A DNA stretch of 64,000 bases from Moniliella sp. 'wahieum' (GCA_003971905.1 RSEE01000041.1:1-64000), one strand, 5' to 3'; positions 22-62,551 are shown, counted from the stretch's first letter. A program made the numbers and translations. The notes: a model not told the origin generated them from the sequence alone.

Positions 22-1666
22 GTGGGTTTTCAAATGCGGGGGGGCGCGGGCTCTGGCAGCTCTGCCGCACGCTATCGACATGGAATATGGACCGGGGACC
101 AGAGGGTCGAGGTCCTCTTCTTCTTATCCTTTGATTTGATCGACGATCGACGCTCTGCAAGCTTCAATGCCTGCAATGGTCGCTGTCTGCCACGGTGTCC
201 ACCGTCCACCTGTCTGCACCCATCATGCATCATGCATCAAGAGATATATGGTGGTGGTTGGCAGTGAGTTTTGCCCAGTATAATATACCTCAGGGTCTCC
301 TCGGTCCGTTTCCCTCCCCGCTGGCACATTCCTAGTCACTTACAGGCCAAAACCAATGAAATGAATAACCCCACCGGGCGCGCGGCGCTTGTCCCCCGTC
401 CCACCACCGCGCTACACACACGGTTGTGCATGGTGGCTGATGCAGATGTGCCAGTGCGGTGCATACTTGAAGCTTGAAGAGCAAAAACGATTTCTTGCGG
501 TTCGATGGCTGTGGGTCTGCGACGTGTGACCACCGTTGGGCATTAGTATATCAGTCTGAATGCATGGTGGCCCCATCGGTTACGTGGTGTGATCATGTGA
601 TGCTCAGTGGGGGGAATGCAGGGCACACGATACGTCGGGCGTGTGGGAGGGTGTGGACACGTTGCGGGTTGAGTACGTTGAGTACTGAGTACGTGTGCTG
701 ATGCAATGCAACTGATGAGGCGGACTGGGTACTAGTGCGGAAGCTTGAAGGTTGCCACGTTGGCGATAGAGTGTTATAACCATGTTACGTTGATCAGGTC
801 GATCAGGTCCATACAGGGGAGCACAGATCACATGATCTGTCACATGTCCCACCAGCGATCCGCTTAGATCAACACCAGTGAACGAATGCTTCTACGCGCC
901 GGTGCCTGTGGTGCCGGCGGACACCCACACATCCTCGTGCGGTCGAACGCCGATGAAACGATGGACAGATGTCGCCGAAGTCACTAGGCCACTAGTCACT
1001 AGTTCACTGGTCGCTGTGGCACTAACGTTGCACACTGGTGTGTGGCTAGGCCCTGTGGCCGGTGGCGACGGAGAGACCGCGACGGACATGGGGGCTGTCC
1101 CTCCCTCTATCCTAACCGGTAGCCGTTCCTGCCCCATCCTCAGGGGCTATTAGCTAGTGTGGGTGTGGGTGGGCCTCGGGGGTTTCCTGTTGCTAGGCTG
1201 TCGTCTGGCGTCTGGGCTGGCCGCTGTGATCTGACGTCTGACGTGTGACATTGCCCACGAGTGACGAGGGACATGTGACATGTGACGCCGACGCTGCCCA
1301 GCCAAACTTACCCCCTGCGACACTGTCCCCGCGCCAAAGCGGGGCTTGGCATGCCGCACACCGGCGCTGTGCGGTCCAGCCGCCCCATAGGCACGGCGCC
1401 TGTGGCCCCCAGCCCCTGCCCCCCCCAGTGGGCGCAGCGGCGCGCACGGGCGCAGTGCTGTGGCGCGAGTATAATACACCCACTCTGGCCAGACCAGCCT
1501 GCGACTGGTCCATCCCTTCTTACCTCTTAACCCCCTCCCCTCCCCCCACCTTCTTTTGCTCTGCTGCGTGTCCTCTCTCACTCCGCCCGCACCCTCTCTC
1601 CTTCTCCACCTCCACCTCCTCCTTCCCACTCGCCCCGTCCGTCTTTTGCCCACCTTCGTTTCCGCC

Positions 1667-4017: not shown

Positions 4018-5137
4018 TTCCCTCCCTCCCTCGTCTCTGGCCGCGGCCCCTCTTACTCTTCCGTACACGGTGTGACCGTTCCATTTCCTCCCTCCTCTCA
4101 CTGTCACCCCTCCTCCCCCGTTTGGTCTCTCTTTTTTCTTGCCCTTCTGGCCGGTTCGGGCCTTACTTCTTATCTGTGCCTGGGTGGGGGGATTTAGGAT
4201 TGGTCTCTTGGTTTGACGTTTGCGGGGGCTGATCCTCAATCCCCACCCTAATAACCAGTTTGATCTCGTCCCCCTCCCCTTCCCCAGCCCAAATTTTCGG
4301 TATGCCAGATGTGACGCATGTGACGGTGTGTTGCCAGCCACGGGCCGCTGTGTACTTCAAACCTCTTACTTTCTCCGCTTACCGCTCACGCCCTTTTGTG
4401 TTTGTTCCTGGCCTTTGTCCTTTGAGCGCTTCAGCTTTGGAGGCCATTAGGCCATGGATGAACGACTCTTTTGATGACTGGGATGATTGATGTCGATGAC
4501 CTCGCTCTCCCTCGCCTCCCTTCCCGCCTCTACTGCCCCCACCTCCTCCCCCTTTACTTTGATGGTAGCGACGATTGAAACGACTTTAACTCTCTTTGGG
4601 GTGCGTACAGAGGTACGTGCACCACCGTCCGGGTGCGTGATGCGGTGGTGCCAAGGGCAGAAGATATGCAGGTTGCGGGTGAGAAGTGACTAGTAGTGAG
4701 ATGTGAGATGTGAGATGGCCAGGTGGGCGTCAAGCTTCAAGCCTTCAAATTCAAGCTTCAAGCGTGCAAATTGAAAGTTGAATATGACGTGCGCCCCCGT
4801 GCAGCTGAAGGCTGGCCCCGCACCAACCATTAATCACGAGCGGTGGCTGCGAACCGGGATTGCCACCACCCGAAGCCGGCTGTCGATGCGAGCTGGCACT
4901 CGCCACTACCACTGTGCGCATCCTCTTGTTCGCCCTCGCCCTCGCCCTCACGGTCACCCTCACGGTCACTTGGGCATCCCTCCGCTCCGACTAAGTTTCG
5001 TGCGCGCCCGCTTCCTCGCTGGTTCTGCGCATCGCCTCGTGTCTGTGCCTCGGTTTCCGTTTCCGTTTCCGTTTCGGTGTCGGATCGCTTTCGCTTGCGC
5101 TCCGCTGCTTGCTCCCTGCGTGCACCTTGTCCCCATT

Positions 5138-8973: not shown

Positions 8974-9309
8974 TCCTAATCCCAATCGTACTCCCCCCAT
9001 CATAACCGGTACCCGAGAACCGGTAGCCCCACCTGTCCCTCTCGTGCTTTTTCCGTGCCTTTTCTTTTCTTGGGGGTTTTCGTTTGCCTCCTTGGTCAAA
9101 CTCATTCTTGCCTTGTCTTGTTACCTTGCCTTACCTTGGTCCCTGCATTTCTTCCCCCTTGCTTCCCTAGAAAGGGTAACCGGTAACCGGGTAACCCTTT
9201 TCCGGCCTCCCCTTTCTTCCCTTTTTTTCCCTCCCCTTCCTCCCTTTGGCCCTTCCTCCCTCCCACCCATCCACTTGCGCTTTATTTTTCCCACCCCCCG
9301 GGCCCTGGC

Positions 9310-20387: not shown

Positions 20388-21713
20388 TTAGCGTGCCGGG
20401 GCCTCGCCGTACTCGACCAGGCGCTACCGTATCCCACAAACCAAAGACCAAACACAAACACAAACACGGTACAAACAAAGTGTCAGTTGCTCCACCCCAT
20501 CCACCACCCAGTACCCACCCGTACCCAGTACCCAGTACCCAGTACCCAGTACCCAGTACCCAACACCCAACACCAATACAGAGTACCCCGGAAAGAAAAA
20601 CGTACGAGCAAGTTACGTTGGAGCATGGCGATGTCAACTTGCCAATGGCAGGCAAGTACTGGCTTGCGCGGGAGCGGCACCTTATCGAAATTCTTTTCGG
20701 AGGAAAAGTTGATGCAGGTAGCGCCAGGTTTGATGAGCGCGGTGGGATCTTGAAATCGGCCGAGGCACACCGCCAATGACCACGTCGGAGAGGGGCACGA
20801 CCTGGTCCAAGGTCAACTCAGTAGCTTGGACTGATGGTGAGCGCGCAGCCGGCGTGCAGCATTCTGTGCGCGAGCAGCCTGGACACGAGCAGAGCCCGAA
20901 CGTTCCGTATCGGTTCCCACGGACGCATCTTTTTCTTTTCGGAACAGGAGCACACCATCCAAGTCGACTCTGTACACTGTGGCGCCATCGTTGGCCAGCA
21001 GCGCAGCCAATGGCCGCCCGACCACTTCAACCGATTGACAATCGTCACTGTCTGCCCTGCAGCCGATCGCCGTAGGCCAACTTGCTATCGTACACGCCCA
21101 TCGCTTCCAGACACTTGACCACGGCCAAAGGCGTGCAGGGTAAGATCGACTTGGCGAATCCCATGGGCGTTCGCACCGTTTGCGTCGCCGATGTGGCAGC
21201 GACTTCCGTTGCTGTGCCCGGAGCGCGCCGACGTCAGCAGGCTTGGCCACGCACGTTGTGGTACATGTTCAGCAATAGGAAAAGTGTAGGCCTCAACATC
21301 TTTGCGGGGATCAACAATTTGCTGAAGATACGTGTCCCTTCTTCCGCCAAAGATGGGGTAGTACACCATGACGCCATCGACGCCAGCATCGGCATTGGCT
21401 GCGATGATCAAGTCTTCCACGTCGGCCTCGAGGGTGGAAGGGCATCGGACGCAGGTGTGCTCTCGTCCCACGTATGCCAAATCTCAAAATCGATGCCGAC
21501 TGCATCGCATGCCTTCTTGGTCCACTCGGCATACGCAATGCTCGGAGCCGATCGGGTAGCCAGGATGCCCACCAGACGCGGCGCCGACTGCCGCGCGCAA
21601 TGCGCGCAGCAATCTCCGCGGCGGTGGCGGCGGTGAAAGGGTCGCTGATCGAGGACGCCTTCCACAGCTTTGCCGCTCAGGACGGGCGCATCGGCAGGAC
21701 GGCTGGTGCTCAT
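20388..21713 (-). CDS. MTD1: NAD-dependent methylenetetrahydrofolate dehydrogenase
   Basis: PRLVGILAT, YAEWTKKACDAVGIDFE, GVDGVMVYYPIFGGRRDTYLQQIVDPRKDVE, TIVNRSEVVGRPLAALLANDGATVY, CINFSSEKNF, YLPAIGKLTIAMLQRNLL, then an intron and RLVEYGEAPAR-stop. Frameshifts present. Confidence 0.88.
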
Positions 21714-24699: not shown

Positions 24700-27600
24700 G
24701 GTACATTGGTTTAGCGTTTACCCCACACTACCCTACCTTCCACCCTGGGTTGAAGCCTGAAGCTTGAAGCTTGAAGTTGCACCGGCTCCAGGCTCTGCTG
24801 CGACAGCGATGGCACGGAGGTAACGGGGTTCAGCAAAATAAAGTAGGGTCTGTTGGAACCACATCTCGTTCAACAATCTTGAAGCTTGAGGCCTTGAGGC
24901 CTTGGGGCCCGAGAGGGAACAAAAGATTCTCTGACGGCTGGTTTGCTTGTGCTCCTACACTGTTATAGCCCTTGTGGGGTTTATTATTATTCCTTTCTCT
25001 TACCCTGCACAGCCATGTGGAGGTCGCAAGCCAACCCACCCGCCACTGCTAAGGCGCTGAGTCTCTGCTCAGCTGAGCGCTACGATTCAATATTTACATG
25101 TCAGATGCCACGCTGCCGCTCCAGCCATAGACACTTAAGTGGTTGTCCACGGAAGAACCCTTGAATCAAGCTAATCAAGCCATCAAGGAGGGGTCTATGT
25201 ACACTATATACGTAGCCCGTTGCACTGCAGGACCCATGTACTCATACCTCTTCGGTCTCTGTGCATGAGTAGTAAGACTGAATCTCAGTACTCAGAACTC
25301 AGAACTCAGGACTCAGGCCTCAGGCCTCAACAGTCTGTGATCAACTCTGATCGAAACACTCGCGCTCTCGTACTCCGACTTGAAGCTTAAGGACATACGA
25401 AAGACGCAGTACGGTTGGGGGCCTCTCGCATAGTGTAAAACATGTATCGGCTTTCCTTTGGATAAATGGTTACCGATTACCCGGTTACCGGTTACTGGTT
25501 ACCGGGTAAGGTTGACCCTCCGCGGTGAAGGTGAAGCTTGAAGCTTGAAGCTTGAATAAAAGCTAGAAGCTTGAAGCTGTGACATGTGGTGGTTGGTCCC
25601 CCAGTCCCAACAACATGGAACCCCAACCCGCGAGAGTCGAAATCTCAATCTCAATCTGAATTTGAGTCTGAATCTGAATCTGGTGGAGCCAATCAATAAG
25701 CGACCCAACAAATAGGAACGGCATTGGTCAAATCCAATGAAGCCATCTTCGTATATTTCCACTCGAAAAACAACAGAGGCCGAGGTCGAGGCCAGAAGGG
25801 AACCGAGGGAAGTGACCTAGTGACCTAGTGACATGGGACACCTGAAACCGAGTTTCCATGTCGCCTATTTGGCACCCACAAGCGGGTATGGGTATTGCGG
25901 CGTTGGTGGTCGGTGGATCGGATACATGCACCCTCTGACTCCGGTTCCCAAGCCTCAAGCTTGAAGCTTCAAGCTTAAAAAGAGGAGCTTGCAGACAGGA
26001 ACTCAGCGAAGCCCTTCCATGCGCTATTATATAACAAGATTGGCGCTACCCTTCGCTAAGAGTGTCAACGCTAAAGCCGCACAGGGCACAGCACTCCCAG
26101 GATTGAAATCGGGTGCAACAGGTCGTACAGGGACAAACGGGCGTCGCCCCCCGTCCATCTGCTGCACTGGGCTCAAATTCAAATGAGAGTGGTGCATGGT
26201 GGCTCTGGGTCAAAAAAGGGTGTAATTGTGGATCTGTTGGGCGTCAGGCGTGAGGCATAATGCATCAGGTGGATGCCTTCGGCTTTTTCCCTTGCTTCTT
26301 ACCGTCCGGTGCATGGAATCGATGGGACGGATAGAATCCCTGCTGCCACGTAAATCAATCTCTACGTATGTAGTATTGGATCGAAGAGTATATCGCAGGG
26401 TGTAGGATGTAGTGACTAGTGCCTAGTGCCAATCCACTCTAGTGACTCCTATTGTAATGTTGCAGTTCCCGGAAACAATTGCAGTAAGATAGAAGGAAAG
26501 GGGGAACCGGTGGCAAAAAGCTTTTGAAGCTTGAAGTTGTTAAAGCGTGAAGCAAGTTAGAGGCTGAAGCTCTGAAACTCTTGTTGCTTTTGAAGCGTGA
26601 AAAACTTGAAGCTTGAAGCTTGTAGAGGATCCACCCTGCAAGCTCGAGAGCCACATCCGTCGCAGCCTACAGGGAAAGGGAAAAGGGTGCTGGCCGGACG
26701 CAATACGTTTATGATAGATGTTACCTTTCGGTATCATTCGGTAAATAACCAACTCGGTTCAGTATATTCATCGGGGTTTTCGGGAGCTCAGCGCCTCAGA
26801 CCCTAGTACCCTATTAGCACCAGGCTCAGGCCTCAGGGCCTGAGCCTCAGGAGGCTTCAAGCTTCAAGCAGCTACCTTCAAGCTTCAGTCTTCAGCGCCG
26901 TCAACTTTCAACCTTCCAGACACACCATACATGAAAGATCTGAGATCTGAGATTTCATGATACCCTAGAACTCCCACCAGGGGGACGCGCGATATGCTGC
27001 GCAATGGGATCTGTACTTAATGACCCCCACGGCTTTGCAAGAACCATCTGACATGTGATGCATTTCGTCGACCGTCGTCGGAGTCATGATGCGCATTATG
27101 CATCAAGGAACAAGGTCCGGTCAACCGGATCACTGAAGTTGGTACCGAGTACTACTCCGAGCGGTGAGTAGTGAGCTACCCTGATGGCGGAGAGCCTGGC
27201 CGGAGATACGGAAAACGGGATATGGGCGGTGGAGCGGAGCACGTCCAGACGACGCGCAAGGCCTAATGTCTGAGGTCAAGCGTAAGTAAGGCGTAAGGAA
27301 CTAGGACCTAGGAACTTGGAACAAGTAATAACCGGACTATCCAGTCTAAGAAGGGCTAGGGTTCTAAGAATGGATATATGAATGGGCGTCATAGTGATGT
27401 CGCGCGTAGTAACAGAGAGAGACAAGTGCGTTGGTCGGAATTGCCAATTGGACGGGACCGTTGGCGGGCGTCTGGATAAATTACGAAACACAAAAGAGGT
27501 GGAGTGAGAAAAACGCTTGCATTATATGATGGCGTAATGCATAACTGGAAATTGGCGTTCCGCTGACTAAGTTGGGTCACGCGATCACGATCAGGCCTCA

Positions 27601-30600
27601 GGCCCTCAGGGCTTAGTTCCCCGGTCGCCTGAGTGCGGCGCTGGGAAGATATAGAAGCTGAATTTGAAAAACGAGTGGCGCTTGAAGAGCTTGACGCGCT
27701 TGAAGAGCTGGACGCGCTTGAACCTTCACTTGAAGACTTGAAGCTTGAAGAGTAACTGAGTTTCCAGTGGCTGTCCAGAAAGCGACGCTGGGGACGCAAG
27801 AAGAGATGACGAGATGAACCGATCCGTGGTCGATGAGAGTGACTTTATATGAGAGGCCTGAGGGCGGACGGTGATGGTCTCTCGTCGATACCATGACGAT
27901 CATGCATCATGGCAGGAACATCTATCTGCAATGCATGGTCGAAAGATGGATGACTACATGAGTCAAGCTCGAGGCTTTTGATGTTGTGTATAATATGCCC
28001 CCCCCAAAAACGCACACTTCCAGGTCAAGCTTCAAAAACTTAAGAGTTTCAGGGCTGCAGAGGAGGGGAGATGAAGGAGCTCTGGGAACTTATAGGCCTT
28101 GGTAGAGGCATTATAGATCGACCTTATCTGTCGTACGTTTACGTTTTGCTGGTACAGAGCGTATCGGGACAGTAGCAGTGCCTTTGCGCGAGACCCACAA
28201 TAGACACTCCTGAGGCCCTGAGGCTGAACGTTCCCCGAACACTCCTCTTTGGCGTAGACATCATTGACTTGGAGATTGACATTGACATCAGGTCTCAGGG
28301 CCTCAACAGGGCCCCCCAGGGTCTCACCAATCACCGATCATGTGGGCTAGTTGATACGCACCCAGTGTCACTATGTCACCATGTCACCGCTCACCACATC
28401 TGTTGATTACCAGCGTCACTATCCCCCTCCCCGCCTTCCGTCGTGCTGTTATTGTCGCCACAATTGCTATAGGATCTAGCCTCTGCCCACCTACAATTTT
28501 TTCCAAGCGTGCAGGAGCGTAGGTTGGTGTGGCCAAAAGTAGTGACCGGGGTGACCGGTGGCACCGGTGCCATGACGCGGGACGTGATGCACAAAAGACG
28601 TTCCCTTCAAGCTTTACATGTCTATTATACACTTATCTATGGCGCCTACGTTCTGTGAATCGTGATCAGAAGACTGATTCGAGGCCTATAGAGCTAGAGG
28701 GACTAGAATATCCAACAGTACATATTGCGCTAGAATGCGCTTTGGTCTTCCTAATCGAATGCGCAAACGCGTCTTAAACACGTACGATTCCATCCATTAA
28801 AGCTTCTCGGTTTCTCTGACTTTGTACGACCGAAGGAAACCACGGATTCGCGTGGAGAACCTCTGGAAATTGTAGGGCAAATGCAATCGCGATGGGGGTG
28901 TGGTTAAGGCCAAAGGTCTAACCCTTTTAGCAAGAGGCGATGGGGGGTCGAACAATAAGCCGGAGTATTAGACACGTGGAGGCTTCGGAGGTCAAATAAT
29001 TAAAGGCCTAAGGATTAGGAGCTTAAGGGGAAAAGGGTGATAACCGATAACGCGCGCTGGCCTATACAGTGTACGGGGCCACGGGTCCCAACAGTTTTGT
29101 ATGCACTAAGTCGCGGTGCGATCCGTCGAGCAATTAAACCATTGCATCATGCTTCAAGCTACTCAATCTATAATGCTCTACCGGGCTCTCTATTATCTGC
29201 TCTACCATATACCACGCCAGACCACGATTGACTAGGACTAGTGACTAGTGACTAGTGATTGGCTGGCTGCCTGGTCACATGTCACATGGTCACAGTGACT
29301 ATAGGGACCATATGATCGACTTGCTGACACTGTGTGACACATCACATGTCACGAGGTCCATCGTGCATGTCAGACGTGTCACATACGATGTCACACGCCA
29401 ATTCACATTTGGTTTGTTCAGACGTTCAACGTTCGTATAACGTCCATCGATCGATCATCGACCATCCCGCTCTCCAATGCACGATAGAGGCAATGCTTGC
29501 ATAGCGTTGGGAGCTAAGCTTGCTCTCGACTTCGGCGAGCTTGATCGAGATTCCCTTTCGCTCGCACTAAGGTCACGATATCTTCCTCACTGGAACCACT
29601 TCGGTCATTAGCGCATCAGTTAGTACCTGCATTAGCGCGTAGCGCTTAGCAGTAATATCTTTGTCCCTGCAGTAGGACGCGATCGCCTTTACCGCTTCTT
29701 TTCCTAGCCACACCCGATCGGCGGCATCGCGAAAGATTGGGTGACATGTGCCATGTGACATGTGACAGTCTTCGGTTTGAAAAAACGTGCAGTCAGTCGC
29801 ATGTTGACACTTTAAGCTTTACTTTTAACGTTAGCCAGGAAAAACGTTTGTACTGAGCAATGCACATGTCGCAGAGTGCGAGTGCCTCAGGCCTCAGTAC
29901 TGATGGTTGGTTCGTGCCTGACCACTTGGGGCGAGGGGCGGGGGGGAGAGAGAAAACGATCAAGAAAAACATGTGTGTAACAAACGTAAACATTAAGCAT
30001 GGTATCGAATGCATGATGTGTGTGCTGCTGAATACTTTTTTGATGGTGGCACTGTTGGACAGAGGAGTGGCTAGTAGTCCGCTGTGGGATTGAACAACGG
30101 TGACCGATTTGATCGATTTGATCGATGGTCTCTCCTATGTAGGCCCCGTGTCGGAGCTTGTGCCTGCTCGCGCGCGATCGAAGATCTTAGATCACTAGAT
30201 CAATTCCTTCTCTCTTTCAAAGGATTTACAGGCTCACGAGATCTCTTCCGATATATGATAGGCAATAGATCCGGAGCGCAGAATGATGCTAGAGCCCAAT
30301 TCCATCCACATTCTCCTCTGCGCCTCTGCAACGCGCCTCTGCAGCCCTCGCTCGTCTCTCCTCAGGCCTCATTAATCGTTCGCCTCACCACCCCCCCCCT
30401 CAGGCCTCCGAACGACTCTAGACTTGAGAGGTCTTCTGGCCTCCTCTAAGGCCCAGCTGGGGCCCTGAAGCGAGTGAAAAGCGCGAGTAACCATTTTACA
30501 AGAATTGCAAGTCGTGTGTAGTGTATGTGAACGTATTACCATACACACCTGCAAGCCCAGCGCAGGGCCCGCCAAGCCATCTGTCACGTGCGGCGTCCCA

Positions 30601-33500
30601 GCTGGGACCGATCGAGCGAGAGTGAGACTTGCATGAGAAGCGCATTGCCAAGAGTACAACACAAATTATACCCAAGGCCCAATGGTCACTGTAGTTGGCC
30701 TACAATGCATAATGGCCAATTGTGTATTGGCCAATCATCTACAATCTCACTGTGGCCCAGTGGCCCGGGTTGCTGTGGCATGTGACGGTGCGTGTTGATA
30801 GTGACGGTTCGATGGCCAATCCTAGTCAATATTCAATCGAGAGTGGAGCCGAGGTGGAGGATGGCGGAGGTAAGGGCCAGATGATGAAGGAGTAGGGAAA
30901 TAGGGAGTAGGGGAGCATGGCGCTTGGAACAGGAGATCTGAGAGGTCGTGGTCCAACATCAAAACACGTTCGACGTTTTTTGCGACTAGACTACGAGATA
31001 CAAAGACACCGCCAAACCAAATTCAATCACAACCAATTGATCGTTGGATCATGCATCCATCCTGAATCATTAATCACATCTCCGACTTCTAGGGCGTCCT
31101 CAGGCCTCAGGCCGGTTAGGCCGATCATCGATCAACCAGGGCCAGTAACTAGTAACTCGTCTACTCCGTACGTCGGTGAAATACTCAGGACTACTGACCT
31201 ATATTCAGTTCTCACAACATGTGCGCCATGGTTCTCTCTCTGTTTTCATTAAACTCTTGCGCTACAACGTCCCAGCTTGGCGCCCCGATCGATCACGTGC
31301 GTCGTGTGCTGATGGAGGGGACTGTGTGCGGAGTCCCACTTGTGATTTGTGATGCATGCTTCAACCAGCTCATTAATCTTTTGCATCATATATGCATCAC
31401 AAAAGCTGATAAAGTCGCTCACTATTCACATGATTCACACATCCACCCAGCCCATCCTCGCCTGCATCTCCGATCATCGATCAGCGCTTAGCGCGCGATC
31501 AGCTCAAGCACCCAGCCTGATCTCAGTGTAAGAGAGGGGGAGCCTCCGACACACGAGTAAGGTCCGTTGGTGGCTCTTGGGGGATGCAAGATGGACGACA
31601 GGCAAGTCAGAGTTGAGCGTTTGAAACACGGTGAGCATTACTGTGGCTACTATTATATTACTGAGTAGCAGCGCCAAGCCCTCTGCGGGATGCTGAGGCT
31701 TGCTCAGCCTAGAATGTAATGCAGCCTGGGGCCTGGGACGTCTCCAGACTGAGTTGTGCCTTGTTGTTCCGCGGTCCAGCGCTCAGCTGAGCTCAGCTCC
31801 GAGGGGCAGCGTGGGGGGGTCTGGGTTTGAGGGCCTGAGATCTGGGAACAACCGTGGGGGCACCGTCACGCGTTAAACCTGAGGCCCTAAGGCCTTCTGA
31901 TGGTGAGCCTGTGATGAGAGAGCCCACAGGAGTCTCTCTTCGCCCCTTGTCTACATGTCACCGCACGAGGATCACCCATTGACTAACTGCATTACATGGT
32001 ACGTTTGCTAGTTATTCGTTACTAGTTACTAGTTACCACCAGTTACTAGCAGTTACTCTAGTGGCCAGGTACTCCATAACTCAATCAATACTCAGTACCT
32101 CAGTATACTCAGTCTGAGTACACATTGTATTCAGTCTGTGTGCTCACAGTACTCGCGTGCAGTCTGAGTATTCTCGCCATCAGTCACTAGCCACTCGTCC
32201 CTTCAAGCTTCAAGCTTCACTAGCTCCACTAGGGACTAGTAGCAGGCACCCTAGTCCTTGAAGCTTGAAGCTTGAAGCTTGAGAGCTTGAGCGCTTGAGC
32301 GCTTGAGCGATGATCGATGGTCAGTGACTAGGTGGCTAGTAATTAATGGTGACTTGTAGCCAAAGCCACTAAGGCACAGGCTACGTCACTAGTCACTCAC
32401 CGCGTCACAGGCGTCACCGCGTCACCGTGACCACTCAAGTCACTCACTAGTTACTCGTCAGCAGTCACGTATACAGTCACGAGACGCAAGTGCTGATTTA
32501 GCCGCCCAACATGCTTTGTGGGGAGAAGGACTTGGGCAGCCGCAAGGACCAAACCCTGGGACGATTGCCAATTGCCAATGTTGGACTGGGCTTTGCGCAC
32601 CGTCCCACTCGTTGCTGCCTCGGCCTTTCCCCCGTCTCGTGCGCTCCCACGGCCTCTCAGGCCGCACCCTGCACAAGGCTGGAATTTGTTATGCCACACC
32701 GCCCTGCCACACTCTGCCCACAAACTCTGCAGCCCGGCGTTACGGTTCCAGTGGCGCTCAGCCCTTGGTGCTCATGCACCAACGCTGTCTGCCCTCGTCA
32801 AAGTACGCGATGCCTATCGGTATTGAACATTGACGATGGCCATCACCCGCCTCATCGTCCCGATCCCATCCCCTCCCAGGGTGCCGCTAATCATTTGCTG
32901 TGTTTTTCTCGTGTGTCCAACGTCCAACAGTTGTCTCGCAACACGCACCTGCCAATGTCCGGGTCAGGAACCCGATGGCGTTGGCAGCCAGCAGGCAGTA
33001 GTTAGCTGTGCGCTCGGTTCTCGAAGCTATCTGAGATCGGGTCTGGGAGCGGCCGTAGCAGTTGCTCGTTCTTACACATTGCGTTATATCGATTGCGACT
33101 GCGCCCTCCCCCCCCCCACTCTTTTTCTTTTCATCTTTGTGCGTGGAACTTGTAGCTCGGAACAGAGACACAGAGCCTATAGTCCCCCCTCCCCCCTTAC
33201 CCGATTCAGGTCCCCGTGTTGGGCTCAGTCGCGCTCACCGTTCAATATTCAATGCTCAACACGATTCACCGTTGACATGCAGTCGGACCGAGGGCCAAAC
33301 TCAGACCAGACTTGGACTTAAGGGCACTTTGACCGGTTGACTTTAACACACCCAGATTCAGTACTCAGTCTCAGACGCGGGCTCCGCATGGGTTGCAAGC
33401 CCCCCGCCCTTTTCTTAGCTCCACCACCATTGCTTTCGCCACTGTCATACGCTGCGCTACACGTTGGGTACTTTAGCGTGCAGATCTGACGTGTGTCGTG
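24700..33500. other. Roughly 8.8-kb region without a recognisable gene, rich in tandem palindromic motifs
   Basis: Only short ORFs. Dense (GAAGCTT)n, (GACTAGT)n, (CAGGCCT)n, (GAGATCT)n, (GACATGT)n and (TACCGGT)n runs. Confidence 0.75.
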
Positions 33501-40758: not shown

Positions 40759-43700
40759 TCACATGCCCTCGGTCAAGACACGTTCGATCAAATGATTCAG
40801 GACCTCCTTCTTGGCCACCAGGGAAGTCGCGTACTTCTTCTCGAGCTGCAACCGAATTTGCTTTTTGGTTACTTGGGACAATCGGCCGTGGCCAAGATAG
40901 CGCGTACATCCGCTTCCAACATGGCGTCCGTGGGAAGTCCCGATGGAACCCCATATGCACTCTCTCGCATCGCACCGGGCGCCGCTCCCCACCCAGCTCC
41001 GGGCGTAGCGTAGCCCCCGTACCCACTGCCGTACCCGCCCGTACCCGCCGTACCCGGGCCCACCAGGCGTCATGCTCCCCGCCCCAGGCCCTGCACTCGC
41101 CAACTGGTGCACCGATCCCGTACCGTACATCGAAGCCATCTGCGCCGGCGTCGTGTACCCAGACCCGGGACCGTACCCCGCCGGACGCACGTGGCCCGAA
41201 AGGTGCGATGGAGTGTAGACAGAAGCATCGGGATCTTTCAGGTCGTTGCCGCCGTACTGCGAATGCATGTCCCACTGCGACCCGTACATGCTTCCGCCCC
41301 GCTTTTCGCGCAAAGAAGGTGCCGAAGGCGCATAGAGAGTAGGTTGCTGTGAAGCCGACGCATCGGGGTGCGTACCGCCCTGCACAATCGAGCCAATCGA
41401 ATGGTTCGACCCACGCTCCCACAGCTCATTTTCGTAATCGCTCCATGTCTTGAGCGGAATCTCAGCCGGGTCAAACGCACCTTCTTCGTGGATGACGACT
41501 TTTGACCGTCTCCCAGTCACGACACGCGTATTGCCCCATGAGAAGTCGTCCATGTGCCAAAAGGAGTAGAGGGGCAAGAAGAGCGACCAGACGGGGATAC
41601 CGACAATGTACACCGCCATCCACCCAATCATCTCAAACTTGCGGTGCAGCAGGAAAATGATCGCTTGCAGACCATAAATCGCGCACAACAGAATGATCGA
41701 GGTAAGGGGGATCGTGCCCAGGTGAGCGGCCACCTCGACAATCAGGTACACAATGTACGCCACCGTCACGGGCGCAATCACCGTTGACAGCAATCAATCA
41801 TGACAATAAAACGCATCGAGAACTGCGTCGGAGCACCCAGACAGTAAGTCAGTCACTTCGTCTGCGGAGAGCAATAACACAACAAAAGAGAATAAAAAGA
41901 AAAAAGAAGGGAACCAGAAGAATGCAATAACGTACACAGCAAAATCCGCACAAGCCCGGTGTCCAAATCAGCTCAAACAAGTTGTGTACCGTAGAGTTGA
42001 TCCAGCGACGACGTTGGGACAGCAAGACCCCCCAAGCATCGGGTGCCGTCGTCTTGCACTTGGCCGCACCGATGAATGGGTCTTGTATTGAGGGAAGTGT
42101 TTGAGAACAAGTGTGGTCAGGTACCGGTCCTCGCCCAAGTGGAGCAAGTTTTTGGTGTGCAACGTGTCCACCCGGTTCTCGCTGTACTCGTCCACCACCA
42201 CTGACGCAATGAAGAGCGGGCGGTGGGTGTCAGGCGTGCGAAGACGGAACATGGAGAAACATCCGGGCAGACAGGTAACACTGGCAAAGAGCGACTCGAA
42301 CGCTTTGGTCAGGTAATGCGAAATGTAGTATTCGTATACTTGCAGCATGGTGATAAAGCTTTGTTTGGCATTGCTCAGTGCCGTCTCGCCACAGAGCCCA
42401 ATCACCTTCTTGTCCTTGGTAAAGAAGGAAATAAAGTGAGCTAGACACATCGTATCCACCTCCGTATCGGCATCCACTTGCAACAAGTACTCGTAAAACG
42501 CGGGTTAACCCCAATCACGTTCTTGATCTGGTGGTACATTTCCAACTCCATCGGCGTCATCGGCAGACCAAAGTGGACCTTGTTAAAGAAGCGCATCAGA
42601 ATCAATTGCGAATCCCGCTTGCCTCGGTTGCCTGGGCGTGCCCGCTCAGTCGGCTTGCCACACTTGGCCACCACCAAGTAGGGCACACGTGGCCAGATGC
42701 TCGTACAGCCCGAATAGATTTTGGCCATGTTGTGTTGCTTGCTCCCTTCGCCAAGCGAAAAGTAGGAAAGCGGCTCCGGATCCACATTAGGGTTGGCCCC
42801 CAAAATGTCAAGCACGATGCGCGGCGTAGGACGGTCGTTGCCATGCCCACAATCATACCGTCACAAATGATCAGCAGCAATTTTCTCTTATCGTCATACC
42901 GCATCGCAGCAATCGAGTTGAGCGTCTTGCGAATCTCCTCGTCGCCTTCAGTGTAACAGGGTACTTGGCAAATCACAAACTTGTCCGATTCCGGCGGCGT
43001 ACGCGTCGTAGTGAACTGCAGCGCCGACAAGAACTTGAACCCAATGATCGAGACCATAAAGATGGACAGAGCAAGAAGGATGTAGTTGGCAAACTTGCAC
43101 GCCGTGTCGTTCCGATGGTCCACCTCTCCAATCAAAAAGAGGTTGCGTAGGCACACACGCTGCCGTTCCTTGATGGCCGGATCAATCTTGAGGGCATTCA
43201 GTTTCTTCGTAATGTCACCGCCCTGTGCCGACTTGAACAGAGCAACAACCGAACCATCGAGGAACGCAGCGTCCACCCATCCGGTACCTGTTGGCCCTCG
43301 GGGGCTTGGAGAACGCCTTGGTCGCCTTGGTTAACATAATCCGTAATCTCATACACCTTGTCTTCGTAAATCGCCACAATCCGCCATCGCCAACAAAGTC
43401 CTTGACGGCCGACTTGGTGTAGCCCATGAATCCAACACGCGCTTGCGACCGCATCACCCACATCTGCTCATAGTACCAATCGGGACGAGCGTCATTGGTG
43501 TGGATAGTGCGGAAGTCGTGGTACTGCATGTTGGTGTCCGTCTCATTTGTCGACGAGAGCTGGACCCAGGGGGACACGGTGCCGTCACACCGTTGCACAG
43601 CGCATTAACCTGGACAGGGAAGATAGGGGTGGCATCTTGCCCGGCGTAGCGCATCAGTTGCTTGGTCGGCACGACCGGGATCGTAGCCCGATGGTTGGTC

Positions 43701-48915: not shown

Positions 48916-49250
48916 GTGGTGTAAGGGGAGGGGGAGGAGGAGGAGGCGTCTCAAGGGAGGGGGGGGTAGGGTGGTGGGGGTGGTGGTGATGAGGAGCGAG
49001 TTGGGCTGAGATGGAAAGAAAGAAGAGAAGGGGGGCTGCGAAACCATTCAACTGAGGCTTAATCATCGATCGTCCAATTCCCTCGGCCGCGTGGAGCGGC
49101 CGTGGCAAGGAAAAAAGCAACCCTAGTATGCTGAGGGACTGGGCCGCACTGCGCAGTTCTGAGCTCTGGTACCAACCCTACCGCCGCCCGCACGACGATC
49201 GGCCCCTGGCCGCGGACGCCCGTGCACACACAGCGCCAGTGCCGCACTTT

Positions 49251-49277
49251 GACGCGACGCGACGCGGCGCGACGCGT
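49251..49277. promoter_or_regulatory. Cluster of MCB-like (ACGCG/ACGCGT) elements upstream of RNR2
   Basis: GACGCGACGCGACGCGGCGCGACGCGT about 340-360 bp upstream of the ATG. MCB/MBF control of RNR genes is established in yeasts. Confidence 0.6.
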
Positions 49278-50143
49278 TTGGTCGCCGCCATCGCGCACTC
49301 AATTCTTCGTGCAAAATCAGCGCATGGCCGCACCCGCTCGTACTACTATGGTAGGACCTTGTACTGGGCGCGTGTGGTGGTGTGGTGTGGTTCGGATCTG
49401 GTGTGGTCCCACTGTGGTACTTGAAGCTTGAAGCTTGAAGCTTGACCCTTCGCCGAGTTTTCTCCCCCCTTCCTCCCTTCTTCCCGTTCTTCTCTTCTTC
49501 CCTCCGGCCTCCGTGCCGCTTTGGCGGTGGGTATGTTAGGATGGGTGACCTGCTATAGGCCAGCGTGTGCGAGAATGGGTTGATTCAACCACCGTATATG
49601 GGTGTTGGTCGACTTTGCTGTTTGGACCCTTTAGGCCTGTTAGTAGTTTAACAAGCTTCAAGGTAAACTTATCGCTTAAAGCGTAACGCGTAACGCGTAA
49701 CGCATAACGTCTTGTTCCGGTACGTTGAACGCGTCGGTGTCAAACTCAAAGAAGAGAGGTGGGAAGTAAAGCCTAACTAAGGCATTTTTGCAGTGCTGGA
49801 TTAACGCGTAACATTTAACGTTTAACGTTTAACCTCCCCCTGAGGACCTGAGATCTGAGATCCGGGTTGTGAGAGATCGGACGATTCCATCCCGCCCCGC
49901 CCCGCTTCGCCTCCTTTTCTGTCGAACTAGTACGGCAAGTACATACTTCTAGCAGCGCAATCAATATTCAGGCACATGCAGTTCTTTGTTCTTTTGTACC
50001 AGAACTATAATCTCCGACTTCCCTACTCCCAGGTGCACGTCGCACTATATAGTAGTCATTTTGTGCGCCCTCTGCTCCCAGATCCCATTTTGTTCTTGCC
50101 TACATTGGCGCACTTGTACGTGGGCAGGGATACATGAAGTTTC

Positions 50144-50203
50144 ATGCGACAAGCTTCAAGCGACAATGCGACAAGCTTCAAGCGACAATGCGACAAGCTT
50201 CAA
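50144..50203. repeat. 22-bp tandem repeat, about 2.7 copies
   Basis: ATGCGACAAGCTTCAAGCGACA at 50144 and 50166, partial copy at 50188. Confidence 0.9.
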
Positions 50204-53678: not shown

Positions 53679-56600
53679 GGTGGTGGTGGCAAAGGGAGGG
53701 AGATCGGAGAGGCGGAGGGCGGGGTCGAAGCAAGTGCACCGGCAGAGGGCGGCAACTACTGGGATATATACTGGGCAAAGCAAGCGTACGTGGGTATGTA
53801 TGTGTACGTTCCTAGCCGTGCCGATTGAATATGGATTGCTGGGTGCCGGTGCTGGGTGGTATGCGACGGGACGATGGATCGGGTGCTGGCTGTGCTGGCT
53901 GTGCTGGCTGTGCTGGCTCGAGTGCAGCGGCTATGCGCTATGGCGAATTGATAGTGATCCTCTGAATCAGCGCCGTCTTGGCATGTACATGCCCGTGTGC
54001 CCGTGCCTGACGATCTGGGAGAAGGGCAGTGTGCATGCGGGAGTGCCTAGGCCGCAGCCTGGCACCACGTTCTTATCAGCGGAGGGCGAGGCACAGGGGC
54101 AGTGGGGTGCTGCGGGGTCGCGGGCAGCGGGGGGGGGAGCGCGGGGGGCAGCAGCAGGCGGCTCTCAGCTGCTCTCGGCAGCCAAATGGCCGAGGCCGCT
54201 GCGTTGCCGCCGCGCCCCGCTCCGCACCAGTGTGCCTCTGCCCCGCACGAGGGGGGTGGATGATCACCGACATTTGATTGTCGATAGGCCAGAAATATAA
54301 CCGCCAGTCCTAGGCGTTGCAAGGGGCAACGCGTGGCACGTGACGAGGGCACCAGCACCAGCGCAGTGTGGAGACAGCTGAAAGGAGCACGCCACTGGTG
54401 TGTGCGCGAGCCGTCCTCCCTCCCGAGTGCTCCCCGAGCATCGCCGCTGCGTTGTTGGGCGTTGGGCGTGCGTTGGGCACGGCAATCCCACGCGTGGGCA
54501 AGCGAAGAGAGTGGACCTCGCTACGGTAGGCAGGCAGAAGCACGGGGCACGGGCAAGGGGCAAGTGTGTGCGCTGTTGGAGTAGCCCACTGTCGTTCTTC
54601 TCTGATTGCTGTCGCTTCCTCCCCGCTGCGGCCCAGCCAGCGCTACTGGGTGTTGGTACATATGATGGGCCAGCGCACGGGTGGCGTGGTGGCGGCAGAG
54701 CGCTCATAGCAAGTAGTACCTAGTACCTAGTACCTAGTCCCCAAGCACCGCATCCCACTGCACACTACTCTACTCCCGCCCGCATCCACATCCGCTCTCG
54801 GCTGAAAAGGACATTGGATCTAGACCCTCCTCCCCTGGCCGTTGCCATCCATTCTTCTCCGCGCCAGATGGACCAACGCGTGGCACATTCCTCCCCCACA
54901 ACACTCCTCTCCCATACATGGCCTGCCCCCCACCCGGTATACTTCTGGCCACACTCTCTTCGCTATCATATTCTTCCCAATTCCCGTTGGCATATCTATA
55001 CCCCCCCCCCCACCTCGGGCTCTCTTCGTGGTCACAGTCGCTTGTCTGTATCCCCAAACTCTCGTGCCAGCCCATTTGGTTCCGAAGGCCTACTACCATC
55101 AATTGAATCAATAATCAAGCTTCAAAACGTATCAACAACGTATCCGCACGTATCAACGTTCAACGTTCAACGTTCAACGTCCTATATCTATCAGAGGCCA
55201 CAGGCCTAAGGCCTACTAAGACTGGAAGCTGGATCGGTAATCGATAATCGCCGATCATCTTCAACCCCTCCCCCGGCCTACCGATGATACGGGGCTCACA
55301 TATGTGTGTGAACATGTGTGGGCAGGTGTGGGCCCGTTGTTGGGCCAGGGACCAACTGTGGTCCTAAGGCCTAACCCGAGAGCCTGGCCCCCGACTGCTC
55401 ATTAATCATTAGCTTCACTGCAAGCTTTTCAAGCTTCAAGCTGCAAGGCGCTCAAGCAAAAGGACTGAGTTGGCTCAGTGGGTTACTGAGTACAGAGTAA
55501 GTAACACAGAGTTCTTAGTCAGTTAGATAGGTTTTGCCAGTTACTTGGGTAACTGTGATGCGTAGTACGTGATGGCCGATCATCGATCATGAATGATTCC
55601 CACCATGGACAGAGCTGAAAGATAAGTGGTTCGTGAAGCTAGCTCGTGAAGCGTTACAGAGCTCAGCTGAGGAAGAGGAAGCCCACACCCCATCGTCCCA
55701 CAAACAAGCCGCTCAAACATAAAGGAAGACGCAGACACCCGAGAGAGGACGAGAGCACGAGAGCACGAGAAGACTTATAGCCTCAGTAGTGCCACACCAC
55801 TGTGCGTCCCAGAACCTAGGGTGTCGGTAATAGCTGGAAGCGATCATTAAGAGCATTGAAAATTGAGCTTCTGAAGCTTGATCTCCTGAGAGCCTGGAGA
55901 TCTCATCATTGATCCTCTCTATGTGCCCTTCAAGCTACAATGTCACAAAACCGTCCCTAATCCTCATACAGTTCCTAGATGTTGCATGCCATTATCAGTC
56001 TACTGACTCGTTTAACGTCATCGCGTCATCGATCACCTGCCACATGCGTGTCACAACAAAATGATTGAAGACTGTCTCTGTATGGGGACAGCATGCACGC
56101 CCATGAAGCTCTCGGACTTAGACTGACGCGATGCCTGATGCCTGAGAGATGTGAGTCCCACAAAGTTAGATCTACCAGGCACAGGGAACGTGTGGGGATG
56201 GGTACTCTAACGCCCGGTAAAAGTATTCCCTCTAAGATCTAACGCTCGGTAAAAGTATATGCGCCGATGGGCTGTTGTATACCGCGTATACATGGCTCTC
56301 CTACGAACCATACTAGTCAAAACACCCTATATGCGCGATTGCGAATCAGGTACATGACACGCACCAAAGTCCCTATCGCGCTTCAAGTTCCTGGTACGTT
56401 CTGATTGCCACTGAGTACTGACCGGTTATCGATTATCCGTCCTTAGCATTATAGTAACTGCTCACAGAGTCACAGAGTCACTTAGTCACTAGCTTCGCAA
56501 GAGGTACCACAGGTATCCCCCTGGTACCTTCCCGTCGGTTAAAAGCTGATGTACACACAGGAACCCCCCACGTCCATTGAATTCCTCATCCTCCAACACT

Positions 56601-60216: not shown

Positions 60217-62551
60217 ATGGTGCGAAAGAGGGTGGGGCTGGGCGGGACGAAGGAACGTGGAGGAGGCGGTAGGAGGGGAAAAGGGAACGGGAAAGGAGAA
60301 GGAGAAGGGGGGAGAGGGTGGGCAAGCGGAGGGAAAAGAGAGGATGTGTTTGCGGACGCACTGACGGATGCACTAATGGCTAACTTTTGCTGCTTCGGGC
60401 AGCCACTGCCTGAGAAGTAACACTGTTGATACATGATCGATGCATGATCCGTGGCGGATTGGTGCCTCGCCTGTGACACCTACCCCACACAAGCAGCACA
60501 GGCCGACTCACACGCTGTCTGCATCTTGGCGTCTGTGCCTGGCGGGGCGTGGCGGCTGTGTTGCGTGCTGGTCGTTTCCGCTCATCGGTCGTCGATCCTC
60601 CGGCCGTGCCGGCTGGGCGTTGTGGCGGCCCAAGCGAACACAACAACCAAGCACTCACCGGACGGCGCCCACCCGATCGACACGACACGTACCGGCAGCC
60701 GCCCACACGGCCGCTGTACTGCGCTTCCTGTGGTGAGGCACATCATGCTCATGCATCACCGGTATCCATCGCCACTGCCTCTGTCCCGCCGGCCTGTACC
60801 ACCCACGTGCGTAGCACAAATTTTGCCCCGTCCCAGATTCTGCAGCCTCCTCGTGGCAGATCTCTCGTAGATCCCATCAATGCATCACACTGCTTAATGA
60901 ACAACATTCTCACTTGCAACCCTCCAGCATGGCCTCGCTTGCAATACATTGATGGCGGGGGTGCTTGATGGCGATGAGTGGATATGAAAACGTGGCCGTG
61001 AAGCGAGTTATGTGTCGGTACTGTCGGCTATTTCCACACCGGACGCGTGAGCGCCAGCACACCTGAGGAACTTCATTTTAGTCGGCCTATAAGAAGCTTC
61101 TGTGACTGAGAGTCGTCCTGCAGACTGGTGCCAACTGAAAATGAAAGTAGGCTGGCTCACTCGCCGAATTGATCCCAGTAGGACGAAAGTCACGTGGACG
61201 TGGCGGAGTGAACAATAACGATGCAACGTGCTGTCCCGCGGCCCTAGCCCTTTTGGATTGGCGCAAGATCGAGGTCGGGGCCCGTCCAACCATCTAACGG
61301 AAGGTCAAAACGGCAGGAGGGGGGGGGGGGGTCGATGTTGATGGCACCCGTGCTCCACTAATTCTGGACAAATCCGAGATGGGTTATAGTTCCGAATTGG
61401 AGTCCAGAATGAAGGCTTACAGGGGAGATGGTCCGCTTCTGGATTGGTCCAGGAATGAGGTCACGCCGCTTCCCAAGAGCTTAGGCCGCCTTCAGACGGC
61501 GCAATGTTCGAACCAACAGCGTCGGCGCACCATCAGAGATGGGTGGATTTGAGAATAAATGGTAGCGCATGGTTCTCAGGTGACTCTCTTTCAGAAGCGC
61601 ACAGCGGGAGGGACAGGCGGGGCACACCGATGGTGAACTTGCAAGACACCTAGTCTCTCAACCACAGACGATCTTCGAGTAGTAATCATACAAGTAACGG
61701 GGTGAGGGAGAAGAAGGGGAAGCCGGGGAAGGAGAGGTGGTGGCGATGAGAGGCGGAACACGCAGTGGGACAGGGGTGAACACGTGGTCTAGCTGCTGAA
61801 GGAGGACTGCAATGGAGGATGAGCTTCTAAGGAGAGGAACAGAGGCTATGAAAGGGTAGGGCCTTACTATATACTGAGACGAGGGTACCGCAGAGCTGAG
61901 GGAGCGTCCGGGGGATAAGAAGCGTGATGACTATCACGCAGGATGCGTAATTGGGGCATCGCCCAGCCCCACCACGACCGGATGTGGACGAGGCGATGAA
62001 GAACGGGCACGGCAGAGGTGCCGTGGTCGAACAGCCCCACCAGCCTCGTGTGGAGAAGAGGCGTGGTCGTAGGATGAAGGGGAAACATCTTCTTCCATGA
62101 CGGCCTCTCCCCCCTCACCCCTCATCAGGGGTGACGTCGGGCGGGCCGGGAGAAGAGCGTGAAAGGGTGGCCTTGTTTGCGAGGCGTGTACCGAGCTTTG
62201 CTGGCCCAAAGGGCGGCGTTGGCGAGTCTGGAGGCCAGAGCACGTCTTGCCGCAGGGGAGGAGCGACGAGCTCCTGGGAGGGTGGGTTGAGTGACCGCGC
62301 TGATAGCGAAACGCTGCCGCTCGGGAGCAGCTAGCAGCAAGCCGCCGCCCCCACGCGTGTGGGCTTCATAACCACACGCCCAATCTGCCTCTTGGCCACT
62401 CTCTCTCGCTAGTCTTAGCGTTTAACAGGACTCAGACGTGTGTTGGGCTGAGAAGTCTTGTTCAGCGGCTTGGGGCACGCGTGGGTGTGGGCGTGTGGAT
62501 GCGCCGCCCCGTGCGGGTGTGGCGCGTAGTGTCAATCATCGATCATCGAAC

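Follow-up and report, generated by a model that had tools for sequence, protein, structure and literature searches.

A T-N-A-pivoted 7-bp palindromic rule in non-coding DNA of the fungus Moniliella sp. 'wahieum'

Analysis of a stretch of 64,000 nucleotides from Moniliella sp. 'wahieum' (GCA_003971905.1, RSEE01000041.1:1-64000; this whole stretch is called the window) confirms that non-coding DNA of this fungus follows a 7-bp rule pivoted on T-N-A (N, any base), and that the rule is real and far beyond chance. The primary word is the odd palindrome xyT-N-Ay'x', in which x' and y' are complementary to x and y, and the palindromic hexamer A....T is the joint of two abutting words. The word has an exact length, those of its tandem arrays that are built from a palindromic hexamer nearly all belong to one class, their symmetry is specific to a period of 7 bp, their location is non-coding, and the same arrays occur in independent fungal contigs. 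No description of this rule was found in the literature on these motifs or on palindromic heptamer repeats in fungi, in agreement with an earlier note which, from the sequence alone, had drawn attention to positions 24700-33500. The evidence comes from these 64 kb and from metagenome stretches totalling about 0.6 Mb; the part of the window at 24.7-33.3 kb, which has a lower GC content and lacks long open reading frames (ORFs), is called the island.

An array was defined as an exact period-7 tract of at least two copies, and it was assigned to the A-class when its unit was a palindromic hexamer A....T plus one base. By this definition the window contains 78 arrays, 37 of which have a palindromic hexamer plus one base as the unit: 34 belong to the A-class, two to the C-class, one to the G-class and none to the T-class. 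The A-class share of 34/78 has a binomial P of 1.9e-35 against the 2.18% chance for a random 7-mer of the window, and the central claim of the earlier note, that tandem runs of different sequence share an A....T palindrome plus a spacer at period 7, is thereby borne out. The same note had seen no tandems of G-, C- or T-initiated palindromes, which is nearly right: there are three exceptions in the window, one of them inside the region. In unit shuffles, the excess of symmetry appears at period 7 (37 observed vs 12.3 expected), and no excess exists at periods 4, 5, 6, 8 and 9, where the counts stand at expectation. When P-N-P 13-mers (a palindromic hexamer, any base, and the same hexamer again) are counted, 25 exact cases are found in the window, all from eight A-class hexamers and none from the other 56 palindromic hexamers, 48 of which lie outside the A-class; the mean over 60 simulations per Markov model is 0.017 for order 1, 0.017 for order 3 and 0.5 for order 5. 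A genome-wide census of the 64 palindromic hexamers against a Markov background had been proposed in the earlier note, together with the argument that ordinary slippage would not select for such symmetry. In the window, the rule is due neither to ordinary composition nor to unspecific slippage, and the Markov and unit-shuffle values lie far below what is observed.

The exact tracts are 14-28 nt long and hold two to four copies. Of the 16 A-class cores that are possible, 11 occur, and 27 of the A-class arrays have a G or C spacer, the other seven an A or T spacer. Positions 24700-33500 contain 26 arrays (18 A-class, one C-class and seven other) vs about 0.5 expected by chance in 8.8 kb (simple estimate 8800/4^7). 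Open frames of at least 200 aa make up 55% of the window, yet 33 of the 34 A-class arrays are found elsewhere; the non-palindromic period-7 arrays are divided between the inside (16) and the outside (25) of such frames. In the island, sequence identity at lag 7 exceeds chance by 0.084, followed by lags 14 (0.027) and 8 (0.025) among the lags scanned to 30, and A-class palindromes take all six top places among the over-represented hexamers; one of them, ATGCAT, is rarely found in arrays. Within arrays, the mismatch rates are lowest at the T-N-A positions (0.14-0.24 vs 0.27-0.33 in the core), a weak difference given that most mismatches come from array edges, and mismatches at the spacer are not in excess. 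Island arrays with a period of 6, 8 or 9 keep T-S-A cores (S, G or C), as in CCTGAGGC x2, AGTGACCT x2.7, AGGCCT-TG, AGCGCT-TG and ATCGAT-TTG.

A run of a hexamer plus N has two dyad centres, namely the middle of the hexamer and the spacer, and the counts of odd palindromes point to the spacer as the centre that matters. The 7-mer xyT-N-Ay'x' occurs 132 times in the island vs 35.7 expected, while odd palindromes of the other centres stand at expectation (A-N-T, 30 vs 31.5; C-N-G, 28 vs 32.8; G-N-C, 42 vs 36.8), as do even palindromic 8-mers (31 vs about 30). The proposed tie of the rule to the T-N-A joint therefore holds, since only T-N-A-centred odd palindromes are in excess; T-N-A itself is not. 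Complementarity of the next pair is 0.35 at arm 2, 0.47 at arm 3 and 0.24 at arm 4, and because it falls at arm 4 to the baseline of about 0.24, the word is exactly 7 bp long. The word is also enriched singly: after masking of all tracts of period 6-9, 59 single words remain in the island vs 21.5-31 expected under Markov orders 1-4, and 59 was reached in 0, 0, 0 and 1 of 200 simulations, respectively. Most of these single words (43/59) have no adjoining palindromic hexamer. With only period-7 tracts masked, there are 74 single words, whose centres are G in 29, C in 23, A in 14 and T in eight; 15 of the 16 possible arm dinucleotides occur among them, and self-complementary arm dinucleotides (19/74) match the chance share of 25%. 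Altogether, 1387 of 8601 bases in the island lie inside words, and 256 word marks, about one word per 34 bp, form 76 clusters with a median gap of 98 bp. Some clusters repeat one word at irregular intervals (29270-29400, 32080-32160, 32380-32480 and 27640-27760; the words are GTCAC/GTGAC, ACTCAGT/ACTGAGT and CTTGAAG) and look like arrays broken by small indels. The share of T-N-A sites that form single words is 59/340 (17%) in the island, 19/158 at 54.3-58.45 kb, 8/60 at 0-2.3 kb and 6-7% in coding stretches. In the second of these regions (54300-58450), which is 4.1 kb long, no frame reaches 200 aa either; its word excess is moderate, and four A-class arrays lie at 55.15-55.6 kb.

The same structures were sought in other DNA. 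A metagenome scan for (AAGCTT-S)x3 gave at least 121 loci with GC contents of 0.30-0.66. Among the 121 matches listed, most have no second palindromic period-7 array, and the majority of their period-7 arrays are non-palindromic; the palindromic period-7 arrays with cores other than AAGCTT comprise nine of the A-class, two of the C-class, two of the G-class and four of the T-class. Whereas AAGCTT arrays as such are widespread, the complete grammar is not, because most listed AAGCTT loci lack both other palindromic arrays and an excess of single words. The full grammar is found in a few metagenome contigs (L011, L047, L079, L087, L090 and L118). In L079, AAGCTT-G occurs several times together with AGATCT-G x2.9 and ACCGGT-A x2.9. 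In L047, which also has AACGTT-C, AAGCTT-C x3 passes directly into ATCGAT-T x2.7 and then ATCAAT-T (7699-7743), and in L011 AACGTT-A x2 passes directly into AAGCTT-G x3.4 (5784-5819). Similarly, in L087, L090 and L118 AAGCTT is paired with ACGCGT-T, AGCGCT-G and ATCGAT-C. L047 and L011 carry split kinase and M35-peptidase frames, and 27 of the 28 named relatives of the L047 kinase are from Agaricomycetes; thus, the array grammar exists in at least one other basidiomycete subphylum. In addition, the occurrence of the same multi-core arrays in independently assembled contigs means that they are not an artefact of one assembly.

Viral contigs unexpectedly often contain (AAGCTT-N)x3 and (AACGTT-N)x3 (loci L122-L189 and L254-L288). 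In a rough comparison, the three-copy arrays in viral contigs number 68 loci for AAGCTT vs 32 for TAGCTA, three for GAGCTC and seven for CAGCTG, 13 for ACATGT vs nine for TCATGA, and 35 for AACGTT vs 13 for TACGTA. The A-class therefore leads the T-class only mildly there, 1.4 to 2.7 times, which is far from the 34 to 0 of the window. One viral contig has six AACGTT loci and another has six TAGCTA loci, which suggests dispersed heptamer elements in these genomes.

Based on the results presented above, we tentatively favour the reading that the arrays are a lineage-typical mutational class of short tandem repeats, whose unit is the self-complementary heptamer xyT-N-Ay'x'. Local duplication and replication slippage, aided by template switching between strands, would favour units that are near their own reverse complement. 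A misaligned or strand-switched copy of such a unit would restore the same sequence, save for a G/C flip of the spacer, and duplication, slippage and strand switching would therefore be tolerated and self-reinforcing on such units. The arrays would grow, mutate, change their core by paired changes, shift their period by 1-2 bp and decay; they would pile up in weakly constrained DNA (the 8.6-kb island and other intergenic DNA) and be excluded from coding DNA. The generator would then be mutational rather than selected, strand switching would take part, and the strict T-N-A may reflect the sequence preference of one step, for example nicking, unstacking or the action of an enzyme.

Several observations fit this mutational reading: arrays hold few copies and shift in period, nearly every arm dinucleotide is used, the words are very dense, and the arrays keep to non-coding DNA. 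It is also favoured by the class rule, the period-7 specificity, the number of arrays in 8.8 kb, the multi-core arrays of the metagenome contigs and the weaker A-class bias of the viral contigs. Abutting arrays change their core in pairs that keep the palindrome: AGTACT turns into AGGCCT via AGAACT and AGGACT, AAGCTT stands beside AGGCCT and AGCGCT, and in the metagenome AACGTT stands beside AAGCTT (L011) and AAGCTT beside ATCGAT (L047). Such changes argue against each core being the conserved site of a factor of its own. The mixed G/C spacers in perfect hexamer runs (25957-25976) fit strand switching. The A-class tracts of exactly 14 nt start in differing frames, only 3/10 being in the frame of an exact odd-palindrome duplication; because there is no constant frame, slippage fits better than a fixed staggered cut, and duplication of an odd palindrome by such a cut, in the manner of a target-site duplication, was rejected.

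On the other hand, a number of points weigh against the mutational reading. It does not account for the strict T-N-A, for the exact 7-bp single words or for their concentration in the island. The palindromy of the enriched single words ends exactly at 7 bp; decayed arrays should leave longer arms, and the single words are therefore not simply array relics. Their enrichment is local, whereas a genome-wide mutational bias should appear in all neutral DNA, and the fungal-like metagenome loci have no single-word excess (6.9% of T-N-A sites). Cores are used unevenly, AAGCTT making up 11/34 A-class arrays, DNA energetics give no reason for T-N-A over A-N-T, and the slippage step is itself putative. 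Finally, one array, ACGCGT-A upstream of the ribonucleotide reductase (RNR) small-subunit gene RNR2, is plausibly a functional site.

The strict T-N-A, the exact single words and their concentration in the island, which the mutational reading leaves unexplained, give weight to the main rival possibility, which we regard as somewhat less likely, that the words are read by protein. They may be sites of dimeric factors, with the arrays as homotypic clusters that arose by local duplication and were kept by selection, or a single chromatin- or kinetochore-type factor, or non-B DNA, may read short dyads, making the island a centromere-like or boundary domain. In its exact length of 7 bp, its invariant T and A and its free centre the word resembles a typical dimer site, single words are enriched that are no array relics, most of them lacking an adjoining palindromic hexamer, the enrichment is centred on one ORF-free, GC-poorer island, and the top hexamers of that island are all A-class palindromes. 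However, a protein that binds duplex DNA cannot demand complementary arms of any sequence, and nearly all arm types occur. In abutting arrays, the paired core changes would swap the factor, and clusters of sites need no strict 7-bp spacing. The density of the 256 word marks exceeds that of ordinary regulatory sites, their clusters show no significant periodicity at 100-400 bp, nucleosome spacing included (0.228 of gap shuffles reach the observed power), and the same arrays are found in ordinary intergenic DNA.

The clearest hint of a protein reading comes from the RNR2 upstream region. ACGCGT is the MCB (MluI cell-cycle box) element of MBF, and ribonucleotide reductase genes are its classical targets. 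Upstream of RNR2 lie (ACGCGT-A)x3.3 at 49681 (49681-49735), which we take to be of MCB type, and a (GACGC)n/ACGCGT cluster at 49250-49280 that includes (GACGC)x4. The 1-kb bin upstream of RNR2 contains five of the window's 30 ACGCGT, the most of any bin, and 15 of its 194 ACGCG/CGCGT. Several ACGCGT cores upstream of a DNA-synthesis gene thus form candidate sites like the MBF-bound MCB clusters of DNA-synthesis promoters, in the case of this one array; unlike the rule as a whole, the likeness covers 1/34 arrays and leaves the class rule and the other ten cores unexplained.

As to a centromere, dyad symmetries shorter than 10 bp are reported to be enriched at centromeres (PMC5889037), and such symmetries are likewise enriched in the island (132 vs 35.7, as given above), where they are dense in ORF-free, GC-poorer DNA. 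The island differs in that its words also occur in ordinary intergenic DNA, no satellite is present, and there is no AT-rich core of the Malassezia type; it would be a putative centromere only. The centromere cores of Malassezia sympodialis measure 164-1152 bp with 13.2-18.4% GC (PMC7025860, Table 1), while the lowest 400-bp GC in the window, and thus in an island without a strongly AT-rich core, is 0.45; a short regional centromere of this type, with a core of 0.2-1.2 kb and about 13-23% GC at the GC minimum of the chromosome, was rejected. A reading via DNA shape or non-B structure, as proposed for centromeric dyads (PMC5889037), is conceivable. A wider proposal would see in the rule a hitherto undescribed, sequence-specific and dyad-symmetric DNA process of basidiomycetes, in which a protein reads or cuts xyT-N-Ay'x' and so writes, copies and maintains the 7-bp words, and in which the island would be a code-defined domain, for example centromere-like or a boundary, specified by short dyads rather than by AT-richness or satellites; we consider this unlikely.

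Scars of mobile DNA, by which are meant T-N-A target sites or excision footprints of the PIF/Harbinger type, elements that duplicate 7 bp, or additions of the P-nucleotide type, are a very improbable source of the words. Members of the IS5/PIF-Harbinger group duplicate T-N-A at their target, PIF has a preference for 9-bp palindromes with T-N-A inside, and mariner-type excision footprints are 7-bp odd palindromes, TA-T(C/G)A-TA; TATGATA was found twice among the single words. PIF/Harbinger targets and Tc1/mariner footprints thus share with the words a T-N-A centre in a short palindrome and an odd-palindromic length of 7 bp, but no such elements were detected here, the words have inverted arms without sequence restriction, and tandem arrays are not explained. 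No credible element with inverted ends and bounding 7-bp direct repeats was detected (duplications of 7 bp, not of 3 bp, were scanned); the 11 inverted-end candidates at up to two mismatches consist of five arrays matching each other, one homopolymer run and five others. No dispersed, long direct, inverted or diverged repeats were found in 24-34 kb, where all 11 BLAST matches are arrays of 24-32 nt. None of the 38 island ORFs of at least 70 aa reached the Pfam cut-off, and hence there is no transposase or reverse transcriptase among them; one weak match to DUF5999 had 18.9 bits vs a cut-off of 27.5. The suggestion of transposon footprints in the earlier note is therefore not upheld. Direct target duplications would, moreover, yield direct and not inverted arms, self-complementary arms are no more frequent than by chance, and the 14-nt arrays have no common duplication frame. 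Scars of hairpin opening, likewise suggested before, would be even palindromes with arbitrary centres, which are not enriched beyond hexamers, as the 8-mer counts show. An artefact of base composition, assembly, amplification or base-calling is scarcely credible, given that Markov models to order 5 give at most 0.5 P-N-P vs 25 and orders 1-4 give 21.5-31 single words vs 59, that the arrays stop at gene borders, and that multi-core arrays of this kind recur in metagenome contigs from separate assemblies.

Hairpin stability also fails as a driver of the rule. As single strands, single arrays fold weakly, at -2.6 to -10 kcal/mol with T-N-A as a three-base loop, and strong folding is found only for inverted array pairs, as at 32190-32330 (single-stranded DNA, -36.7 kcal/mol, z -6.2). 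The smallest self-folding DNA, the GNA mini-hairpin d(GCGNAGC), consists of a 3-nt loop on a 2-bp stem and matches xy-TNA-y'x' in this 2+3+2 layout, but among all 64 GCNNNGC loops only those with G-N-A folded into mini-hairpins, according to the loop survey in PMC13037366. T-N-A is not such a loop, the words having T and not G 5' of the centre, and therefore mini-hairpins do not explain the rule; stabilisation of this kind was rejected.

Among known repeats, microsatellites are close in form, and the period-7 arrays are indeed head-to-tail copies of a short unit. Like microsatellites, they have 2-4 copies in tracts of 14-28 nt, lie in non-coding DNA, stand next to variants of their unit and shift in period by 1-2 bp. 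They differ in that 34/78 arrays obey one symmetry rule (a fixed T and A around a free base) and in that the word is also enriched singly. Common surveys of simple sequence repeats cover units of 1-6 bp and stop at hexanucleotides, and the 7-bp unit lies outside this range. A paper on 'palindromic microsatellites' concerns mitochondria of Fusarium. Structured repeats are reported to stall polymerases and to be constrained (PMC7441554), whereas self-complementary units dominate here. The bacterial hairpin repeats built from heptamers (the cyanobacterial short tandemly repeated repetitive sequences, STRR, and the Xanthomonas GGGAATC pairs; PMC4692102) are similar in their tandem 7-nt units, sometimes in inverted array pairs; theirs are dispersed prokaryotic elements with family-specific non-palindromic units and long arms, in contrast to the short arrays of this fungus, which have palindromic units and many different cores.

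The features are collected in Table 1. All examples given in the earlier note were found at their positions, and the 5-bp version at 31778-31798 and the AAGCTT-G, AGGCCT-C, AGATCT-G and ACTAGT examples are exact. Those of ACCGGT-T and ACATGT are less perfect than written: at 25487 one exact ACCGGT is followed by ACTGGT and ACCGGG, the middle unit at 29744-29763 is CCATGT, and the second unit at 29277 is ACATGG.

Table 1. Island and array positions in the window (no strand assigned; "earlier" marks positions from the earlier note).
Feature	Position	Remark
ORF-free, GC-poorer island saturated with T-N-A-centred 7-bp palindromic words and A....T hexamers	24700..33300	GC, ORF and word counts
AAGCTT-G, 2.7 copies	24758..24776	exact period-7 array
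AGGCCT-TG, period 8	24885-24904	follows AAGCTT-G array 24758..24776
Gradient array AGTACT, AGAACT x2, AGGACT, AGGCCT x2; constant CT-C-AG joints	25284..25330	
AGGCCT-C arrays	25312-25329, 27591..27604, 29884-29897, 31098-31113	earlier 25315-25327, confirmed
ACCGGT-T, neighbouring units imperfect	25481..25495	array listing
AAGCTT-G, 3.6 copies	25532..25556	earlier x3 at 25534-25553
Three AAGCTT hexamers, mixed spacers G, C, then A	25957..25976	
AAGCTT-G	26605..26622	inverted partner AAGCTT-C at 26854-26869
AGATCT-G	26936..26953	earlier 26936-26948, confirmed
ACTAGT-G, 3.3 copies; period-6 GACTAG x2 just before	29236..29258	earlier x3 at 29237-29256
ACATGT-C; ACATGT-G	29274..29288; 29752-29767	both within clusters of GTCAC/CATGTG words
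ATCGAT-TTG, period-9 version	30105..30126	
ACTAGT-A; ACTAGT-T	31144..31157; 32018-32036	earlier ACTAGT-T 32021-32033, confirmed
5-bp version AGCGCT-C-AGCT-G-AGCT-C-AGCT	31778..31798	
AAGCTT-C and AAGCTT-G	32201-32219 and 32257-32282	inverted pair; earlier AAGCTT-G x3 at 32261-32280
AGCGCT-TG, period 8	32285-32309	follows inverted pair 32201-32282
CAATTG-C	32564	C-class exception inside region
Subtelomere-side intergenic: ATGCAT-C 221, AAGCTT-G 466, AGTACT-G 679, ACTAGT-C 990, ACATGT-G 1270	138..1286	
Exceptions in subtelomere-side stretch	CGATCG-A 138; GACGTC-T 1230	C-class; G-class
AAGCTT-C	4750..4763	between two genes
ACCGGT-A	9175..9190	intergenic
RNR2 upstream region: AAGCTT-G x3.7 49420, ACGCGT-A x3.3 49681, AACGTT-T 49814, AGATCT-G 49848	49420..49862	
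Intergenic: AACGTT-C x4 55153, AGGCCT-A 55202, AAGCTT-C 55428, ATCGAT-C 55577	55153..55590	
ATCGAT-C	62535..62549	sole A-class array to fall within a frame of at least 200 aa

The window opens at positions 1-20 with ACCCTAACCCTAACC, 2.5 copies of the telomere-type repeat CCCTAA, and for this reason its start is probably a chromosome end; the island lies about 25-33 kb from this repeat. The host is a basidiomycete of Ustilaginomycotina, to judge by the relatives of two predicted proteins. One is a chitin synthase with a myosin motor at about 40.7-45.2 kb (40759-45249, minus strand), with the domains Myosin_head, Cyt-b5, Chitin_synth_2 and DEK_C, whose best named relatives are all from Ustilaginomycotina at 44-49% identity (Tilletiaria, Moesziomyces, Parajaminaea, Kalmanozyma, Thecaphora, Ustilago and Pseudozyma); it is of class V/VII type and split across at least three long frames. 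The other is the RNR small subunit (ORF 48127-49047, minus strand), with 89-90% identity to Malassezia, Ceraceosorus, Pseudozyma flocculosa and Tilletia. The N-terminal part of this frame is non-homologous and of low complexity, and an intron is likely; the Pfam match is limited to residues 149-305, and because the frame stops in mid-profile, at position 170 of 281, the gene continues in further exons.

The GC content of the island is 0.516 vs 0.594 in the remainder of the window, and the longest open frame in 24.7-33.3 kb has 167 aa. The island shows no clear signal of a composition like that left by repeat-induced point mutation (TpA odds 0.80, CpG odds 0.81), and the whole window has no Rfam match at the gathering score and no tRNA. 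Short tandem repeats of every period abound, with 352 rows from Tandem Repeats Finder per 64 kb, for example (GTACCCA)x6 at 20521-20562. Many of these repeats, at periods of 6, 9, 12 or 18 bp, fall within open frames and therefore probably encode repetitive protein segments. At 50148-50205, a 22-bp unit, GCGACAAGCTTCAAGCGACAAT, is present in about 2.6 copies with AAGCTT-C in each unit.

Since common surveys of repeats stop at 6-bp units, a 7-bp rule could have gone unseen in the hundreds of basidiomycetes that have been sequenced. If its origin is mutational, the strict T-N-A would mark a step of replication or repair with a new sequence preference, and the arrays would be its natural read-out. 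If the words are read by protein, they would encode a chromatin domain in a compact way, in a group of fungi for which the signals that specify centromeres and boundaries are little understood. Either way, the arrays provide an inexpensive marker for whole genomes, and existing assemblies suffice for counting it.

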